DNA from: Gemmatimonadaceae bacterium
Lineage (GTDB): Bacteria; Gemmatimonadota; Gemmatimonadetes; Gemmatimonadales; Gemmatimonadaceae
NCBI GenBank assembly: GCA_019694735.1
Contig: JAIBBJ010000199.1
Location: 16,661-80,660, forward strand
Direction: 5' to 3'
DNA length: 64,000 nt
This document shows, piece after piece, positions 37,209-48,700 of this stretch; within the stretch, counting starts at the first letter, position 1; each line of letters opens with the position of its first letter. Under the pieces are notes generated by a model. It ran no database searches, was not told the DNA's origin, and saw only the letters and a list, made by a program, of their open reading frames with translations. Both the position numbers and the translations under genes were made by a program.

Positions 37209-38036
37209 ATGGACGCCATCCAGGCCTACTTCAGCACCATCCCGTCGTCGCACCGCGCGCTGATCCTCGCCGGCGGCATCGCCTTCTTCTGGGTCTGGGA
37301 GAGCGCCTTCCCGCTCTTCCGGTTCGAGTACCGGAAGTGGCCCCACGCGCTCGTGAACCTCTTCTTCACCGCCACGACCATCGTCGTGAATTTCGTCCTC
37401 GCGTTCCTGCTCCTGGACGCGAGCGCCTGGGTGACCGGGGCCGGGATCGGCGTGCTCTCGTGGATGGGCGGTGCCCCGTTGTGGCTCCAGGCGCTGGTCG
37501 GGCTGCTGCTGCTCGATCTCGTCGGGGCGTGGCTGGCGCACTTCGTCGAGCACAAGACGCCGGTGCTCTGGCGCCTGCACCTGATCCACCACTCCGACAC
37601 GCACATCGACACGACGACGGCGAACCGGCACCATCCGGGGGAGAGCGTCGTCCGGTTCGCGTTCACCCTGCTCGCGGTGGTGGTCGCCGGGGCGCCGATG
37701 TGGCTGGTCTTCCTGTACCAGAGCCTGAGCGTGGTGCTCAGCCAGTTCAACCACGCCAACATCGCGCTGCCGGCCTGGCTCGACCGCGCGCTGGCGTGGG
37801 TGGTCGTCTCGCCGGACATGCACAAGGTGCACCACCACTACGTGCTGCCCTACACCGATTCGAACTACGGCAACGTCTTCTCGGTGTGGGACCGGGTGTT
37901 CGGCACCTTCATGGATATGGAGCGCGCCCGACTGGTGTATGGCGTGGATACCCACATGGATCCGCGCGAGCACGGGACCGTCGGGGCACTCCTGACGATG
38001 CCCCTGCGACCGGGGACCAAGGGCCCCAAGGGCTGA
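37209..38036 (+). CDS. Sterol desaturase / fatty acid hydroxylase family membrane protein
   Basis: His boxes AHFVEH, HLIHHSD, RHHP, FNHAN, HKVHHH; NYGNVFSVWDRVFGT. Confidence 0.9.
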   Translation: MDAIQAYFSTIPSSHRALILAGGIAFFWVWESAFPLFRFEYRKWPHALVNLFFTATTIVVNFVLAFLLLDASAWVTGAGIGVLSWMGGAPLWLQALVGLLLLDLVGAWLAHFVEHKTPVLWRLHLIHHSDTHIDTTTANRHHPGESVVRFAFTLLAVVVAGAPMWLVFLYQSLSVVLSQFNHANIALPAWLDRALAWVVVSPDMHKVHHHYVLPYTDSNYGNVFSVWDRVFGTFMDMERARLVYGVDTHMDPREHGTVGALLTMPLRPGTKGPKG

Positions 38037-38076
38037 GCAGGCGGCGTCCAACCCAGCGTCGGGTCGGTCGAACCGT

Positions 38077-38094
38077 TGTCAGGCAGAGTTGACG
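38077..38094. promoter_or_regulatory. PpsR/CrtJ-like box (distal): TGTCA-N8-TGACG
   Basis: TGTCAGGCAGAGTTGACG, one mismatch to TGT-N12-ACA and close to TGTCA-N8-TGACA; lies in the bchE upstream region. Confidence 0.5.
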
Positions 38095-38125
38095 GGGGAT
38101 TCTCTGTAGCCTACAGAGAATCCCC
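38095..38125. repeat. Perfect 15-bp inverted repeat with 1-nt spacer
   Basis: GGGGATTCTCTGTAG-C-CTACAGAGAATCCCC, read directly from the sequence. Confidence 0.9.
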
Positions 38126-38184
38126 TACGTCTTTCCCCTCACACGATTTAGGGCACTTCTCCCTACTGCGCTGAGGCGTCACTG

Positions 38185-38228
38185 TGTGCAGGTTCTGTGG
38201 CATTCCGGACTGTCACGCAAACCCGACA
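38185..38228. promoter_or_regulatory. Tandem PpsR/CrtJ-like boxes 8 bp apart upstream of bchE
   Basis: TGTGCAGGTTCTGTGGCA (38185-38202, TGT-N12-GCA), then 8 bp, then TGTCACGCAAACCCGACA (38211-38228, perfect TGT-N12-ACA); 23 bp before the bchE ATG. Confidence 0.65.
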
Positions 38229-38251
38229 CTCGCGATTCGGAGGCCCCTCGC

Positions 38252-39961
38252 ATGCGCATCGTCCTTGTGCACCCCAACTATCACTCGGGTGGGGCGGAGA
38301 TCGCGGGGAACTGGCCGCCGGCGTGGGTCGCCTACATCAGCGGGGCGCTCAAGGCGGCCGGGTTCACGGATGTGACCTTCCTCGATGCGATGACGGACCA
38401 CATCGCGGACGACGCGCTCGCGGCGCAGCTCCTCGCGCTCGACCCGGACGTGGTCATGCTCACGGCGATCACGCCGGCGATCTACAAGGCGCAGGAGACC
38501 GTCCAGCTGGTCCGCCGCGTGGTGCCCCGCGCCACGACGGTGCTCGGCGGCATCCACGGCACCTTCATGTACGGCCAGGTGCTCGGCGAGTGCCCGCAGA
38601 TCGACTACATCGTGCGCGGCGAGGGCGAGGAGGTCGTCGTGAACCTCGTGCGGGCGCTGGCCGAGGGCCGGCTCCCGGCCGAGCGCGAATCGATCCGCGG
38701 GATCGCGTTCCTCAAGGATGGCGCGCCGGTCGCGACCACGCCGCACCCGTCCATCCAGGATCTCGACACGCTGACGCCCGACTGGGACATCCTCAACTGG
38801 GACCGCTACATCTACATCCCGCTCAACACCCGGGTGGCGATCCCCAACTTCGCGCGCGGCTGCCCGTTCACCTGCAGCTTCTGCTCGCAGTGGAAGTTCT
38901 GGCGCCAGTACCGCACGCGCGACCCGAAGAAGTTCGTGGACGAGATCGAGTACCTCGTCACGAAGCACAAGGTCGGCTTCTTCATCCTCGCCGACGAGGA
39001 GCCGACGATCAACCGGAAGAAGTTCGTCGAGCTCTGCAACGAGCTGATCGCGCGCGACCTCGGCATCAAGTGGGGCATCAACACCCGCGTCACCGACATC
39101 CTGCGCGACGAGGAGCTGCTGCCGCTCTACCGCAAGGCGGGGCTCGTGCACGTCTCGCTCGGCACCGAGGCCGCGGCGCAACTCAAGCTCGACCGCTTCA
39201 ACAAGGAGATCAAGGTCGAGCAGTCCAAGAAGGCGATCCAGCTCCTCCGGCAGAACGGCATCGTCACCGAGGCGCAGTTCATCGTCGGGCTCGAGAACGA
39301 GACCCCGGAGACCCTCGAGGAGACGTACCGGATGGCGCAGGACTGGAAGCCGGATCTCGTCAACTGGAACTGCTACACGCCGTGGCCGTTCTCCGACCTC
39401 TTCGCCGACCTCGGCGACAAGGTCGAGGTGCGCGACTACGCGAAGTACAACTTCGTCACGCCGATCATCCAGCCCGACGTGATGACCCGTGACCAGGTGC
39501 TCTTCCACGTCCTGAAGAACTACCGCCGCTTCTACTTCAGGAAGGCGACCGGCGGGTATCTCTGGGACAAGGACCCGTTCCGCCGGAAGTACCTCCGCGG
39601 CTGCCTGAAGGCCTACCTCAAGAGCGCCATGGAGCGCCGCTTCTACGACCTCGGCCGCGTGAACTACTGGGGTGCCGGCAAGGCCGACTGGCAGTTCGAC
39701 GAGTCCAAGATCACCTCGAAGGAGGAGCTGGTGCGCCTCCGCACCAAGCGCGAGATCCAGCACGTGCACGGGCAGTCGCCGCTCGATCCGGCGGTGCCGA
39801 TGGTCTCGGTCGCGGGGCACGAGCTCCCCGCCGACGAGTTCATCGCGCCCAAGCGCTCGACGATGCGCCCCAAGGCGAAGGGCGGCACCGCGGTGATGCC
39901 GGACGAGGACGCCTCGACCGCCGCCGTCGCGGCCGCCAGCGAGGGGATCCGCGCATGCTGA
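38252..39961 (+). CDS. bchE: Mg-protoporphyrin IX monomethyl ester anaerobic oxidative cyclase (B12-dependent radical SAM)
   Basis: Diagnostic N-terminus [28 protein letters not shown]; [18 protein letters not shown] radical SAM motif; [18 protein letters not shown]; GGAGG SD before ATG 38252. Confidence 0.95.
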
Positions 39962-41322
39962 GCCTCGGCGACCTGGCCGAGCCGGTGCCGGCGGACCTGC
40001 TCGCGAAGTACGATGTCGCCGGGCCGCGCTACACGTCGTATCCCACCGTCCCGGCCTGGCGCGACGACTTCGCGCCCGACGACTTCGCGCGCGCCCTCCG
40101 CGCGGCCGGGGCGACCGGGACGCCGGTGGCCCTCTACGGCCACTTCCCGTACTGCGCCGCCAAGTGCTTCTACTGCGGCTGCAACGCCGTCACCACCAGC
40201 CGGCCGGAGGCGATCGACCGCTACCTCGACGACCTCGAGCGGGAGCTCGACTGCGTCGTCGGCGAGCTCGGGCGCTTCCACCGGACGGCGCAGCTGCACT
40301 GGGGCGGGGGCACCCCGAATCACCTCGACGACCGCCAGCTCGAACGCGCGTTCCGCCTCTACGCCGACCGCTTCCGCTTCACCGACGAGGTCGAGCTGAG
40401 CCTCGAGGCCGACCCGCGACTCGTCTCGCGGGAGCAGCTCCGGACCCTGCGCGCCCTCGGCTTCACGCGCATCTCGTTCGGGGTGCAGGACCTCGACCGC
40501 AACGTCCAGGAGGCGATCGGCCGCCTGCAGTCGCCGGCCCTCGTGCGCGACGTGTGCGAGAGCGCGCGCGAGGCCGGCTTCACCGGGCTCAACATCGACC
40601 TCATCTACGGCCTGCCGCGGCAGACGCCGGAGTCCTTCGCGCGCACCATCGACGAGGCCCTGCGCCTCGGGCCCGACCGGGTCGCCTGCTTCGGCTACGC
40701 GCACCTGCCGTCGTCGCGGCCGCACCAGCGTGTCATCGAGGAGGCCGAGCTGCCCGACGCGCCCGAACGGGCGGCCCTGTTCCAGCTCGCGGTGCGCCGC
40801 TTCACCGAGGCGGGGTACGCCTGGATCGGGCTCGACCACTTCGCGAAGGCCGACGACCCGCTCGCGGTCGCGCAGCGCGAGGGGCGGCTCCACCGGAACT
40901 TCATGGGCTATACCACGATGCCGGCCGCACATCTCGTCGGCACCGGGATGAGCGCCATCTCCGACGTCGGCGGCGCCTTCGCGCAGAACGAGGCGCGGCT
41001 CGGTCCGTGGCGCGAGCGGGTGGACGCCGGGCGGCTGAGCACGGTGCGCGGCCTGTGGCTCTCCGACGATGACCGCGCGCGGAAGCACGCCATCCAGCAG
41101 CTGATGTGCAACCTCGAGCTCGCCTTCGACGACATCCCGCCCGGTGTCGACGACCTGCGGGCGCGCTTCGCGCCGTTCGAGGACGACGGTTTCGTCGAGT
41201 TCGGTGTGGACCGCGTGCAGGTCACGCCGCGCGGCCGGTTCTTCATCCGCAACCTCTGCATGGAACTCGACGCCTACCTGCCGACCCAGCAGGGACAGGG
41301 GCGCTTCTCGAGGACGGTGTGA
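39955..41322 (+). CDS. hemN: Oxygen-independent coproporphyrinogen III oxidase
   Basis: [13 protein letters not shown]; [15 protein letters not shown]; HWGGGTP; RISFGVQD; [10 protein letters not shown]; IGLDHFA; LHRNFMGYT; 7-bp overlap with bchE. Confidence 0.92.
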
Positions 41323-41918
41323 CCGCGTCGGCCGGCCGGATCGGCCCGAACGCGATCATCCAGACGGCGGCCGCACTGCGCGCGCGCGTGGGCGAGGTCC
41401 ACGCGCAGGCGCTGGTCGTCGGCGCCACCGGACGCGGCCTCGGCGCGCTCCCGACCGAGATGGTGGACGAGGCCGAGGTGAACCGGCTCGTGCGCGCGCT
41501 CGCCCACGACCTCGACCCGGCACTCTTCGAGGCCGTCCTCCGCGACGCGGGACGGCGGACCGCCGACTACCTGATGGCGCACCGGATCCCGCGCCTCGCA
41601 CAGCGGCTCATGGGCCTGCTGCCGCCGGCGCTCGCGCTCCGGGTCCTGCTCGCAGGCATCATGCGGCACACCTGGACGTTCGCCGGGTCGGCCGCCGTGA
41701 CGCTGAGGCGACCGCGCGGCGCGCCGCTCACCCTCGAGATGCGGCACTGCCCCATGTGCCGAGGGATGCGCACGGGGACCGCGACCTGTCACTTCTACGC
41801 CGCGACGCTGGAGCACCTGCTCACGACGCTCGTCACCCCGGCGGCACGGGTGGTCGAGACGAGTTGCGAGGCGACGGGCGGCCCCGCCTGCGCGTTCGCG
41901 CTTCGGCTCCGCGGCTAG
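41319..41918 (+). CDS. bchJ: BchJ (V4R-domain bacteriochlorophyll biosynthesis protein)
   Basis: RIGPNAIIQ; GRRTADYLMAHRIP; RHTWTFAGS; CPMC..CHFYAATLEHL..ETSCEATGGPAC; GTG start overlaps the hemN stop (GTGA). Confidence 0.9.
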   Translation: MTASAGRIGPNAIIQTAAALRARVGEVHAQALVVGATGRGLGALPTEMVDEAEVNRLVRALAHDLDPALFEAVLRDAGRRTADYLMAHRIPRLAQRLMGLLPPALALRVLLAGIMRHTWTFAGSAAVTLRRPRGAPLTLEMRHCPMCRGMRTGTATCHFYAATLEHLLTTLVTPAARVVETSCEATGGPACAFALRLRG

Positions 41919-45766: not shown

Positions 45767-48700
45767 TCAGGGATAACCGCGGGCCCAGTGGTTGGTCAGG
45801 TTGCCGGTGTAGGCGGTGGAGAGGATCGGATAGACGGCGGGCAACGCCGTCCCCCACGTGTGGCTGATGTAGTTCACCGTGGTGGGGCTGCCGGTGTCCT
45901 GTGTCCGCGTGATGGTGTTCTGGAAGTTGACCATCAGCCAGTACGTGCCGGCGGCGACCGTCACGTTGCCCGTCGTGAACTCGACCTGGCCGGTCGTGCT
46001 GATGGTCCCGACGGCCTGCGCGACGAGCACGCTGGGCCGGCCGGCGGCATCGGTGTAGAGCCCGATCCGCGCGCCGCCGGTGCCGCCGGCGACGTTCAGC
46101 CCGAGGTGCGTGAGCGTGATCGGCTGCGAGATCGTGATCTGCTGGCCGATCAGGTAGTTCGGGCTCCACGGGCTCGTCCCGGCGAAGGCCGTCGGGTAGC
46201 CGTAGCGCACCACGTACGAGGCCTTCACGGAGACGTTGGAGAACGAGCTGTAGCCCTGCAGCATGATGAACCAGTCACCGGCCGCCGGGTTGTCGATGAC
46301 GCACTCCTCGGCGTTGCCGCCGATGTACGGCCGGCAGTTGAAGAGCCCGAGGGTCGCCGCGAACCCTTGGCGCACGTACAGGTCGGCGTCGCCGGTGCCG
46401 CCCGAGATGGTGACGCGCAGCTGCGGCGTGCCGGCGGGCACGTTGATGACGTAGTGGCGCTGCGCGGACGCGGTGTCCGTGATGCCGGCGATCGTCTGCC
46501 CGTTCGACATCGGGACCGGCATCCACACGCCGGCTCGCACCGTCGTGTCGGAGAGGGTGCCGTTGGAGACCGCGCGGACGGACCACGAGGCGCTGATCCC
46601 GGCCGGCACCGAGGGATAGGTGTACGTCGTGACGTCCGGTCCCACCGTGCCGATCACGCTGACCGGGGTGCACCCGACGCCGCCGCACGCGAGGATCTGG
46701 TAGCCGGTCTCGATCGTGCTGTTGTCGGACCAGGTGACGTCGACCCGCCCGCGGTCCACCACCGTCGCCTGGATGCCGCTGGGCGCGACGAGCACCGTGG
46801 ACGCATCCCCCGACACCGGGCCGCCCGCGGAGAATCCGATGCCGCTCCGGAACGTCCGCACGCGGTAGCGATAGATGCTGTTCGGCACCACCGAGCTGTC
46901 GACGTGCGCGGTGACGTCGACGCCCAGCACCGCGGTGATGCTGAAGTTCGAGCAGCCGGTGCCCGCGCAGCGCTCGATGACGTTGAACGTCTCGTTGTCG
47001 GCGTTGTCGGCCCACGTGACGGTCACGCGGTTGACCGTGTTCGGCGTCACCACGAGCGCGCTCGGGTCGGCCGGCTGCCGCGTGTCCGCCGCCGCCGTGT
47101 TGCTGTACGGGGTCACGCCCACCGCATTGAAGGCGCGGATCCGGTAGACGTATGACCCGTTGAGCACGAGGCCGGTGTTCGCGAAGCCGGTCACGTCCGG
47201 ACCCGTGGTCGCGATCTCCTCGAAGTCGGTGCATCCCGCGCTGCTGCACCGTTCGATGCGGTAGCCGGACTCGTCACTGGCGTTGTCCACCCAGCCCAGG
47301 TTGATCTGGACCGAGTTGATCATCGTCGCCGTCAGCCCCGTCGGGGCCGCCGGCAGCGTGGTCGCCGCGACCGCGGTGGCCGTGTAGGCCGAGTTCCCCA
47401 CCGGGTTCGTCGCGACGATCCGGAACTGGTACGTGTTGTTGAAGGCGAGGTCGTTCACCTGGAAGGCCGCGACGTCCGGCCCCACGCTCGCGAACGGCGC
47501 GAAGTCGACGCATCCGCCGCCCGTGCAGCGCTCGAGGATGAACCCGGTCTCGTTCCCCGAGTTGTCGAGCCAGGTGAGCGACGCCTGGGTCTCCGAGAGG
47601 GTGGTGGCCGCGAGGTTGAGCGGGACGTTCGGCGCATCGAGGAGCTGCAGCACCTCGCTGCTGTTGTCCGACGAGCCCGCCGCGTTGGTGGCGCGGACGC
47701 GGTAGTTGTAGAACTCGCCGGTGGTGAGGCCGGCGTCCTCATAGAAGGTCGAGTTCGCGGGCACGCTGCTCACCGGGGCGAAGTCGGCGCACTCCTTCCC
47801 GAGGCAGCGCTCGATGACGAACGCATCCTCGTTGTTCGCGTTGTCGTTCCAGTCCACCCGGATCGCGGTCGGCGACGTGATGACGAGACCGATGATCTCC
47901 GGGCGGTCGGGCAGCAGGGTCGAGCCCACGGCGAGCGGGGAGGCGCCGGAGATGCCGGCGGCGTTCCGCGCGTAGACGCGGTACGCGTACTGGCGCCCGA
48001 GGTCCACGCGGGCGTCGGCGTAGACCGTCGTCGCCGCGTCCACGGAATCGCGCAGCGCCACCCCGGTGTTGCAGGCCGGGTCGTCGCAGCGTTCGATCAC
48101 GAACCAGATCGGTGCCCCGCCGGCGGACGCGTTCCAGGTCACGTCGATCTGGGTCGCCGTGATGGTCGTCGCCACGACGTCGGTCGGGTCGCCGGGGATG
48201 GAGGTCGTGGCCCCCGCCTCCGCCGTGTAGGCCGAGGCGCCGGCGGCGTTCACCGCCCGCACCCGGTACGTGAAGGATTCATTCGGCGCGATCGGCGCGT
48301 CGGTGAACGCGGTCGTGCCCGGCGGCAGCTGGGCCTGCTCGGTGAAGTCGCTGCACCCGACGCCGGCGCACCGCTCCACGCGGAACGACTCCTCGTTGTC
48401 CGACGCGTCGGCCCAGGCGAGGTCGATGCGCGTGGCGCTCACGGTCGTCGCCGTCAGTCCGGTCGGGGCCGCGGGCAGGTCGGTGTCGAGCTCCACGATC
48501 GCCGAGTAGCCCGAGCTGCCGGCGGCGTTGCTCGCCCGGACCCGGTACCGGTACGTGGTGTTCGCGACCGTCGAGACGTCGCTGAAGCTGACGGTGTTCG
48601 GCGGTTGGAACCCGATCTGGGCGAAGGAGGTGCACCCGGTGCCGGTGCAGCGCTCCACGAAGTAGGCGAGCTCGTTGTCCGCGGCGTCGACCCACGCGAG

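Follow-up and report, generated by a model that had tools for sequence, protein, structure and literature searches.

Three PpsR (CrtJ)-type palindromes form a probable composite operator upstream of bchE-hemN-bchJ in a phototrophic member of the Gemmatimonadota

We analysed a 64,000-nucleotide stretch of DNA (hereafter the window) from a Gemmatimonadaceae bacterium (GenBank assembly GCA_019694735.1, contig JAIBBJ010000199.1) and focused on the 215-bp intergenic region in front of bchE, the first gene of a bchE-hemN-bchJ operon. The window comes from contig C119 in an assembly of 226 contigs, and the genome measures 3.52 Mb with 73% G+C. In this region we found three palindromes of the type bound by PpsR (CrtJ), which we call boxes 1, 2 and 3. 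They are very probably real PpsR binding sites, judging from their sequence, and the region as a whole probably acts as a composite PpsR operator of the operon in this phototrophic member of the Gemmatimonadota. This reading starts from four observations: the sites themselves, their specificity across the genome, a ppsR gene in the same genome and the conservation of a box in orthologous promoters. From these data we infer binding, the sign of regulation, looping and the signal that is sensed.

Results

Three palindromes precede bchE

All three boxes are found inside the single 215-bp intergenic region.

38077..38094, strand not assigned: box 1, TGTCAGGCAGAGTTGACG, TGT-N12-ACG; distal, at -175 from the ATG; high-scoring PpsR-type site
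38185..38202, strand not assigned: box 2, TGTGCAGGTTCTGTGGCA, TGT-N12-GCA; weak partner site 5' of box 3
38211..38228, strand not assigned: box 3, TGTCACGCAAACCCGACA, perfect TGT-N12-ACA; proximal, predicted high-affinity PpsR-type site

Between boxes 2 and 3 lie 8 bp (38203-38210), and the end of box 3 is 23 bp from the bchE ATG (38252). Measured from start to start, box 1 lies 108 bp upstream of box 2 and 134 bp upstream of box 3. Compared with the extended consensus TGTCA-N8-TGACA, boxes 1 and 3 each match at 9 of 10 positions (box 1 has ACG for ACA) and box 2 at 7 of 10. An earlier model-made annotation of this DNA (the sequence-only reading) had proposed three PpsR boxes with this gap and this distance to the ATG; we confirm all positions and spacings from the sequence. 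As for the boxes themselves, the proposal stands for boxes 1 and 3, which are strong, while box 2 qualifies only as a weak partner.

The extended motif is concentrated at photosynthesis promoters

The bare TGT-N12-ACA core is found 3 times in the window compared to 3.19 expected, and 154 times genome-wide compared to about 71 expected. With a chance-level count in the window and only about 2-fold enrichment in the genome, we rejected the bare core as evidence. The sequence-only reading had rightly cautioned that matches to this 6-bp core arise by chance.

The extended consensus behaves differently. Allowing at most one mismatch to TGTCA-N8-TGACA, there are 2 matches in the 64-kb window, both in the bchE intergenic region, and 12 in the 3.52-Mb genome, compared to 1 for the reversed control pattern. 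Control patterns with identical half-sites and a spacer of 6, 7, 9 or 10 yield 4-8 genome matches each at the same threshold. At the genome rate (12 per 3.52 Mb), a 215-bp region would be expected to contain about 7e-4 such sites. Seven of the 12 genome matches are on C80, the contig that carries the photosynthesis gene cluster (PGC), and two are bchE boxes 1 and 3. The more restricted pattern TGTCA-N8-NGACA has only 3 matches in the genome, namely box 3 and two sites flanking ppsR.

To avoid circularity, we trained a position weight matrix (PWM) only on 21 boxes upstream of proteobacterial bchE genes. In a scan of 3,519,258 positions, box 1 ranked 7th (19.5 bits) and box 3 ranked 10th (14.9 bits). 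Seven of the other eight top-10 sites are in the photosynthesis cluster (bchC, bchG, bchF/aerR, crtF/bchI, ppsR) and one is on contig C61. Overall, 9 of the 12 consensus matches and 9 of the top 10 PWM matches are found in the cluster or upstream of bchE. Promoters of the bchC, bchG, bchF/aerR, crtF/bchI and ppsR type are classical CrtJ/PpsR targets in Rhodobacter.

The seven C80 matches comprise two at bchI/crtF, one each at bchC, bchF/aerR, ppsR and bchG, and a seventh before a type III glutamine synthetase gene. The sites at the photosynthesis genes are as follows.

C80:47137 and 47163: bchI/crtF-like intergenic sites, 1 mismatch each, 8-bp gap; a third site is at 47106
C80:48516: consensus match upstream of bchC
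C80:72028 and 72044: consensus matches between bchF and the aerR-like gene
C80:72792: site before ppsR, inside the 3' end of the aerR-like gene
C80:74460: consensus match directly upstream of bchG

Several of these sites end in ACG instead of ACA; therefore a strict TGT-N12-ACA pattern would overlook them. The sequence-only reading had suggested that the motif be sought at other photosynthesis genes, and the regions upstream of bchC, bchG, bchF/aerR, crtF/bchI and ppsR all contain it.

The 8-bp tandem recurs in the photosynthesis cluster

CrtJ binds TGT-N12-ACA, and the palindromes at the Rhodobacter bchC promoter lie 8 bp apart over the -35 and -10 elements (PMC5362033, PMC6199135). We searched for partner sites by taking the best-scoring PWM neighbour within 14-40 bp of each strong site. 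At bchC, bchG, crtF/bchI and bchE this neighbour lies at exactly 26 bp from start to start, which corresponds to an 8-bp gap. The partner at bchC is at +26 (TGTAAGTCGTACGTTACC, 4.2 bits), the one at bchG is also at +26 (4.4 bits), and the crtF/bchI pair, offset by 26 bp, scores 9.5 and 21.1 bits. At bchE the partner is at -26 and is box 2, the best-scoring neighbour of box 3. The chance of a score of the grade of box 2 at either of the two exact offsets is about 1e-3.

The bchC promoter of this genome gives the clearest view of the layout: TGTCAGGTTTGCTTGACG, 8 bp and TGTAAGTCGTACGTTACC lie over TTGACG-17-TACGTT, with TTGACG in the strong site and TACGTT in the weak partner 17 bp on. The tandem geometry to which the sequence-only reading had drawn attention at bchE is thus also found at bchC, bchG and crtF/bchI. 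Support for box 2 consists only of its exact spacing and its conservation in orthologues, and box 2 is best read as a low-affinity partner that would depend on cooperativity.

Other strong sites of the genome are arranged differently or lie elsewhere. Between bchF and the aerR-like gene (C80:72028-72061), the strong boxes TGTCAAGACAAGTTTACG and CGTCAATGTCTCTTGACA overlap at a 16-bp offset, unlike the 8-bp tandem; a 16-bp overlapping pair also adjoins ppsR in a complete Gemmatimonas genome (G004:3094863 and 3094879). At C80:91911-91928, the 1-mismatch box TGTCCTGTTCTGCTGACA lies 70 bp upstream of the type III glutamine synthetase gene (GSIII_N, 235 bits), a candidate for an unexpected target at the edge of the cluster. 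The fifth-best PWM match in the genome is the strong PpsR-type box TGTCTAGCAACACTGACA at C61:22811-22828 (locus L107, about 2311-2328), about 100 bp upstream of a CarH/LitR-like gene (MerR-type helix-turn-helix (HTH) plus B12-binding). The promoter of this gene, TTGACA-17-AATATT, is clean and its start is almost leaderless; the neighbouring genes on C61 gave no family matches. The C61 box may link PpsR to a second light-responsive regulator.

A full-length ppsR lies in the photosynthesis cluster

C80:73063-74379: ppsR (TIGR02040, 459 bits compared to a cut-off of 275, model positions 1-442 of 442)
C80:71948-72940 at its widest (start about 72083): aerR-like open reading frame (ORF) directly upstream of ppsR, with weak corrinoid-binding matches

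The encoded PpsR is full length, with a Fis-type HTH match at its C-terminus (residues 424-464). The cluster on C80 contains bchI (minus strand), a crtF-like methyltransferase gene, bchC, bchX, pufL, pufM and acsF. Around ppsR we find bchF (minus strand), the aerR-like ORF with its B12 domain directly upstream and bchG directly downstream. Both a photosynthesis cluster elsewhere in the genome and the ppsR gene, which the sequence-only reading had named as the gene to look for, are therefore present. The aerR-like ORF matches corrinoid-binding models weakly (E values of 1e-10 to 1e-6, far below the cut-offs), and these models are not specific to AerR; its position and domain type fit AerR.

The redox cysteines of Rhodobacter are C251 and C424 in PpsR, equivalent to C249 and C420 in CrtJ. 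When the PpsR found here is aligned to R. sphaeroides PpsR (4HH2), the C251 position, the 'LLLCQI' cysteine, is occupied by valine. Its single cysteine is 11 residues upstream of the C251 position, and the last 80 residues, HTH included, contain none. With both cysteines absent, the disulfide or sulfenic-acid redox switch is therefore unavailable to this PpsR. The sequence-only reading had placed the operon in a PpsR redox/light regulon: wiring to PpsR is supported in silico and the redox part is left without backing. Any signal probably enters through the AerR-like B12 protein or by another route.

Within the cluster, the crtF-like (C80:47162-48436) and aerR-like ORFs have a third-position G+C of 0.71-0.77, compared to at least 0.9 in most other genes examined, which fits a foreign origin of the cluster. 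A B12 riboswitch that we suspected upstream of the crtF-like gene was not confirmed.

The proximal box is conserved in orthologous promoters

The proximal box is found at -39 to -41 in four loci that share the synteny of the hydroxylase gene and bchE: the window (TGTCACGCAAACCCGACA), L009 (CGTCACGATGTCCTGACA), L014 (TGTCACGCCAACACTACA) and L058 (TGTCACGCGTTCATGACA). Across these loci GTCACG and ACA are invariant and the 8-bp spacer is variable; GTCACG is the longest invariant run in their 115-nt alignment. Beyond the syntenic loci, the box is also conserved in L102, and a same-genus genome has a 1-mismatch box, TGTCAACTTCCCCTGACC, at -33 in a different upstream context. Conservation in orthologous promoters, another check proposed by the sequence-only reading, thus holds in the syntenic Gemmatimonadota.

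At the position of box 2, L009 has TGACAGGTTATCGCGACA and L014 has CGACAGGTTAGCGCGACA, each with a gap of 7 bp to the proximal box; the alignment pairs box 2 with yGACAGGTT...CGACA. Because the orthologous site sits at 7 bp, we read the copy in the window as a degenerated version with a 1-bp insertion. Box 1 is similar to the sites found upstream of bchE in Rubrivivax (L049, TGTCAGGCTGGGTTGTCA) and at locus L020 (TGACAGGACGAGTTGACG), and distal or upstream sites like it are found in L020, L021 and Rubrivivax.

Across 23 Gemmatimonadota loci, there are 18 matches in about 7.5 kb of DNA upstream of bchE compared to 1 in 34.5 kb of bchE coding DNA (at most two mismatches or a perfect TGT-N12-ACA core). 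All ten genomes that we tested for ppsR retain an intact copy despite bchE loci that have no box; in one complete genome that lacks boxes at bchE, sites still surround ppsR. Outside the phylum, a box with at most one mismatch precedes bchE by no more than about 120 bp at about 20 proteobacterial loci, and several of them (Rubrivivax, Chromatiaceae and others) have tandem boxes at 24-25 bp. In cyanobacteria, matches at bchE loci are either weaker or distant, and none with at most one mismatch falls within 150 bp of the gene; in Chloroflexota, the bchE loci contain no box.

The boxes head a bchE-hemN-bchJ operon

37209..38036, plus strand: fatty-acid hydroxylase family gene (PF04116, 90 bits; OlsE-like, 72 bits, below cut-off)
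38239..38243, plus strand: Shine-Dalgarno GGAGG of bchE, read from the sequence and kept in orthologues
38252..39961, plus strand: bchE, oxygen-independent Mg-protoporphyrin IX monomethyl ester cyclase (TIGR02026, 777 bits compared to a cut-off of 481)
39955..41322, plus strand: hemN, oxygen-independent coproporphyrinogen III oxidase (TIGR00538, 483 bits compared to a cut-off of 325)
41337..41918 (start approximate), plus strand: bchJ (TIGR02019, 166 bits compared to a cut-off of 74)

The gene downstream of the boxes is a genuine bchE. Its product has Pfam B12-binding and Radical_SAM domains, as in a B12-binding radical S-adenosylmethionine (SAM) enzyme. The start of hemN overlaps the stop of bchE by 7 nt, and the TIGR02019 match to bchJ begins at residue 78 of ORF 41106-41918. 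Eleven Gemmatimonadota loci keep the order bchE-hemN-bchJ with bchE in first place. The hydroxylase gene is outside the operon and co-directional with it, and sets the 5' limit of the bchE regulatory region; it also precedes bchE in L009, L014 and L058.

The nearest relatives of this BchE are all from metagenome-assembled genomes of Gemmatimonadota, from 88% identity downwards, and we therefore assign the genome to a phototrophic member of the Gemmatimonadota. The operon is patchy even within the genus: BchE is encoded in only 3 of 24 other same-genus genomes (G011-G034).

Promoter, palindrome and other elements upstream of bchE

A scan of 37950-38300 for intrinsic terminators called none. Hand-fitted -35/-10 pairs under boxes 2 and 3 were rejected, with spacers of 22 nt or no -10. 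Read by eye, a single hexamer resembles a -35 element: TTGACG, which forms the right half of box 1 and is followed 17 bp downstream by a poor -10 (TACAGA). Two layouts are possible. In one, the promoter would be at the TTGACG of box 1, giving a leader of about 128 nt on which boxes 2 and 3 would act as a roadblock. In the other, an unrecognised promoter would lie in or near two conserved blocks, or over boxes 2 and 3.

38095..38125, plus strand: perfect 15+1+15 palindrome of 31 nt, GGGGATTCTCTGTAG-C-CTACAGAGAATCCCC, abutting box 1
38132-38144 and 38156-38171, plus strand: conserved blocks TTTCCCCTCACAC and CTTCTCCCTACTGCGC (alignments A1, A2, A3)

The two blocks are conserved upstream of many Gemmatimonadota bchE genes, even at loci without PpsR boxes, and the first reads CCTGACA (-35-like) in relatives. 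They could be the real promoter or the site of another regulator.

The palindrome has a 14-bp stem, and a 91-nt fold around it reaches -37.1 kcal/mol (z = -3.1). It may be a terminator-like hairpin of the hydroxylase gene that has no T-tract; because it has no T-run, the terminator scan does not report it. We found no second copy in the genome, which rules it out as a repeated element. L058 and L009 share only its right arm, and L009 is missing about 35 bp that comprise box 1 and the left arm. Because only the right arm is shared with relatives, box 1 and the left arm look like an insertion of about 35 bp or an inverted duplication.

Searching 37900-38400 for a structured RNA leader or riboswitch returned no Rfam match at E <= 1. 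An FNR/CRP-type oxygen sensor controls bchE and hemN in some purple bacteria; near bchE here, we found no FNR-type box (TTGAT-N4-ATCAA) with up to 2 mismatches.

Discussion

A proposed mechanism

We propose that PpsR, encoded in the cluster on another contig, would bind the strong proximal box 3 and, through cooperativity, fill the weak box 2 that lies 8 bp upstream, much as in the bchC promoter of Rhodobacter. Box 1 would be an auxiliary strong site, and an oligomeric repressor could bridge it to the proximal pair. Bound PpsR would switch off the radical-SAM branch of bacteriochlorophyll and haem synthesis, which is sensitive to oxygen, and the aerobic cyclase would be supplied by acsF in the cluster. 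The neighbour of ppsR, a gene for an AerR/PpaA-like protein predicted to bind B12, may provide relief. The bchE and hemN products are oxygen-labile radical-SAM enzymes; together with the presence of acsF, this makes the regulatory logic sensible. Box 3 immediately precedes the ribosome-binding site, a position that favours repression.

Comparison with known systems

The closest model for the proximal pair is the bchC promoter of R. capsulatus, with which it shares a pair of 18-bp palindromes with an 8-bp gap, one strong and one weaker, for which cooperative repression is expected; the bchC promoter of this genome shares the layout. In contrast to R. capsulatus bchC, at bchE the strong site lies downstream of the weak one, the boxes cannot be fitted with a -35/-10 pair, and the host belongs to the Gemmatimonadota and not to the proteobacteria.

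The bchEJGP operon of R. capsulatus has the same target gene, the same regulator family and a distal site added to proximal ones. CrtJ peaks in chromatin immunoprecipitation sequencing lie upstream of bchE, and bchEJGP has distant sites (PMC5362033, PMC6199135). 'Distant' site pairs in Rhodobacter are 45-500 bp apart at the bchEJGP, puc and crt promoters (PMC6199135), a range into which box 1 falls with its 108 and 134 bp. However, Rhodobacter bchE is inside the cluster, directly after crtJ, and heads bchEJGP. In our genome the gene after ppsR is bchG, and bchE opens an operon of its own, bchE-hemN-bchJ, on another contig.

Betaproteobacterial bchE promoters (Rubrivivax and others; L049, L061, L073, L088) likewise have one or two TGTCA-N8-TGACA boxes, 80-110 bp upstream, with tandems at 24-25 bp and, in Rubrivivax, an upstream site close to box 1. 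They differ in having a gap of 6-7 bp instead of 8 bp and boxes further from the ATG, and no distal third site was noted.

Within the phylum, G. phototrophica AP64 also has a horizontally acquired cluster with ppsR and ppaA/aerR (PMC11406998), and bchE and hemN outside the cluster (PMC7844134). The PpsR site at the start of its bchI-containing operon matches the tandem at C80:47137/47163. It differs in that only one PpsR site, in the cluster, is reported for it, whereas here sites with at most one mismatch are found at at least six cluster promoters and at the remote bchE operon.

Points against the operator and alternative explanations

Several observations weigh against a working PpsR operator at bchE. 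Box 2 by itself mismatches the consensus at 3 of 10 positions and scores 0.1 bits, a background level that is reached or exceeded at 5.5e-4 of genome positions. Box 1 is not present in L009, L014 and L058, the closest relatives, and about half of the Gemmatimonadota bchE loci have half-sites or nothing (no box with at most two mismatches). A sigma-70 promoter scan of 37950-38300 called none, which leaves an overlap of the boxes with a core promoter hypothetical. PpsR has neither of the two Rhodobacter redox cysteines and so does not qualify for a redox switch of that type. Finally, cluster transcription in cultured G. phototrophica is nearly insensitive to oxygen and only transiently repressed by light, and a single PpsR site was reported there, at the bchID-puhE operon (PMC11406998).

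Taking the sites as real, it is unlikely that PpsR activates the operon or acts dually, for example from box 1 upstream of the promoter. The CrtJ homologue of Rubrivivax is thought to be both repressor and activator (PMC5362033), and an activating PpsR is found in Bradyrhizobium (PMC12654162). The BchE described here shares about 70% identity with that of Rubrivivax, box 1 is like the Rubrivivax upstream site, and the lack of a called promoter leaves several positions of the boxes relative to it possible. But with box 3 at 23 bp from the ATG, before the ribosome-binding site, occlusion or a roadblock fits better, and the 8-bp tandem is the geometry of repression at bchC (PMC5362033). Somewhat less probable still, the boxes could be decaying relics of horizontally acquired photosynthesis genes, with little or no regulatory effect today. 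This would agree with the minimal transcriptional control of the G. phototrophica cluster despite ppsR and ppaA (PMC11406998), with the many Gemmatimonadota bchE promoters that keep only half-sites (L010, L015, L018), with the degeneracy of box 2 here and with the loss of the PpsR redox cysteines. Set against this, ppsR has stayed intact in each of the 11 genomes tested, this one included, the motif is sharply confined to photosynthesis promoters here with 0-1 mismatches at several operators, and the half-sites of box 3 are invariant in four species while its spacer has diverged, which indicates purifying selection.

We consider it very improbable that the boxes arose by chance, are ordinary TTGACA elements of the -35 type or belong to a different palindrome-binding regulator, for instance an oxygen sensor of the FNR/CRP type. 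It is true that the 6-bp core is no commoner in the window than chance predicts, that PpsR boxes have TTGACA-like right halves, and that control patterns with other spacers also find 4-8 matches in the genome. These explanations do not account for two matches with at most one mismatch in one 215-bp region where about 7e-4 are expected, nor for boxes 1 and 3 both reaching the top 10 of a PWM built from other phyla. The left half TGTCA does not look like a promoter element, CCGACA in the right half of box 3 does not resemble a -35 element, and the search for an FNR-type box near bchE found none.

Significance

CrtJ/PpsR control of bchE is already established in Rhodobacter, and a composite PpsR operator at bchE adds no new regulatory principle. 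The added interest is modest and concerns the evolution of a transferred regulon in Gemmatimonadota: an operon outside the photosynthesis cluster is linked to the cluster's own repressor, in a phylum with horizontally acquired phototrophy, where the sole experimental study found one PpsR site and almost no transcriptional control.

More tentatively, a complete PpsR regulon, as opposed to the one site described in G. phototrophica, may have survived transfer into Gemmatimonadota and reach the bchE-hemN-bchJ operon outside the cluster. In this scenario, which is possible but which we would hold with less than even confidence, a PpsR without redox cysteines would exert control only via its B12/light partner AerR or another signal. 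The bchE operator would be eroding lineage by lineage, strong in this clade and reduced to half-sites or absent in others that keep ppsR.

If the boxes work, the acquired regulator would still govern the switch between pigment synthesis by the oxygen-independent (bchE, hemN) and the oxygen-dependent (acsF) route in at least some Gemmatimonadota, and the lineages that keep the boxes and those that lose them would form a natural experiment on the retention and dismantling of a transferred regulon.

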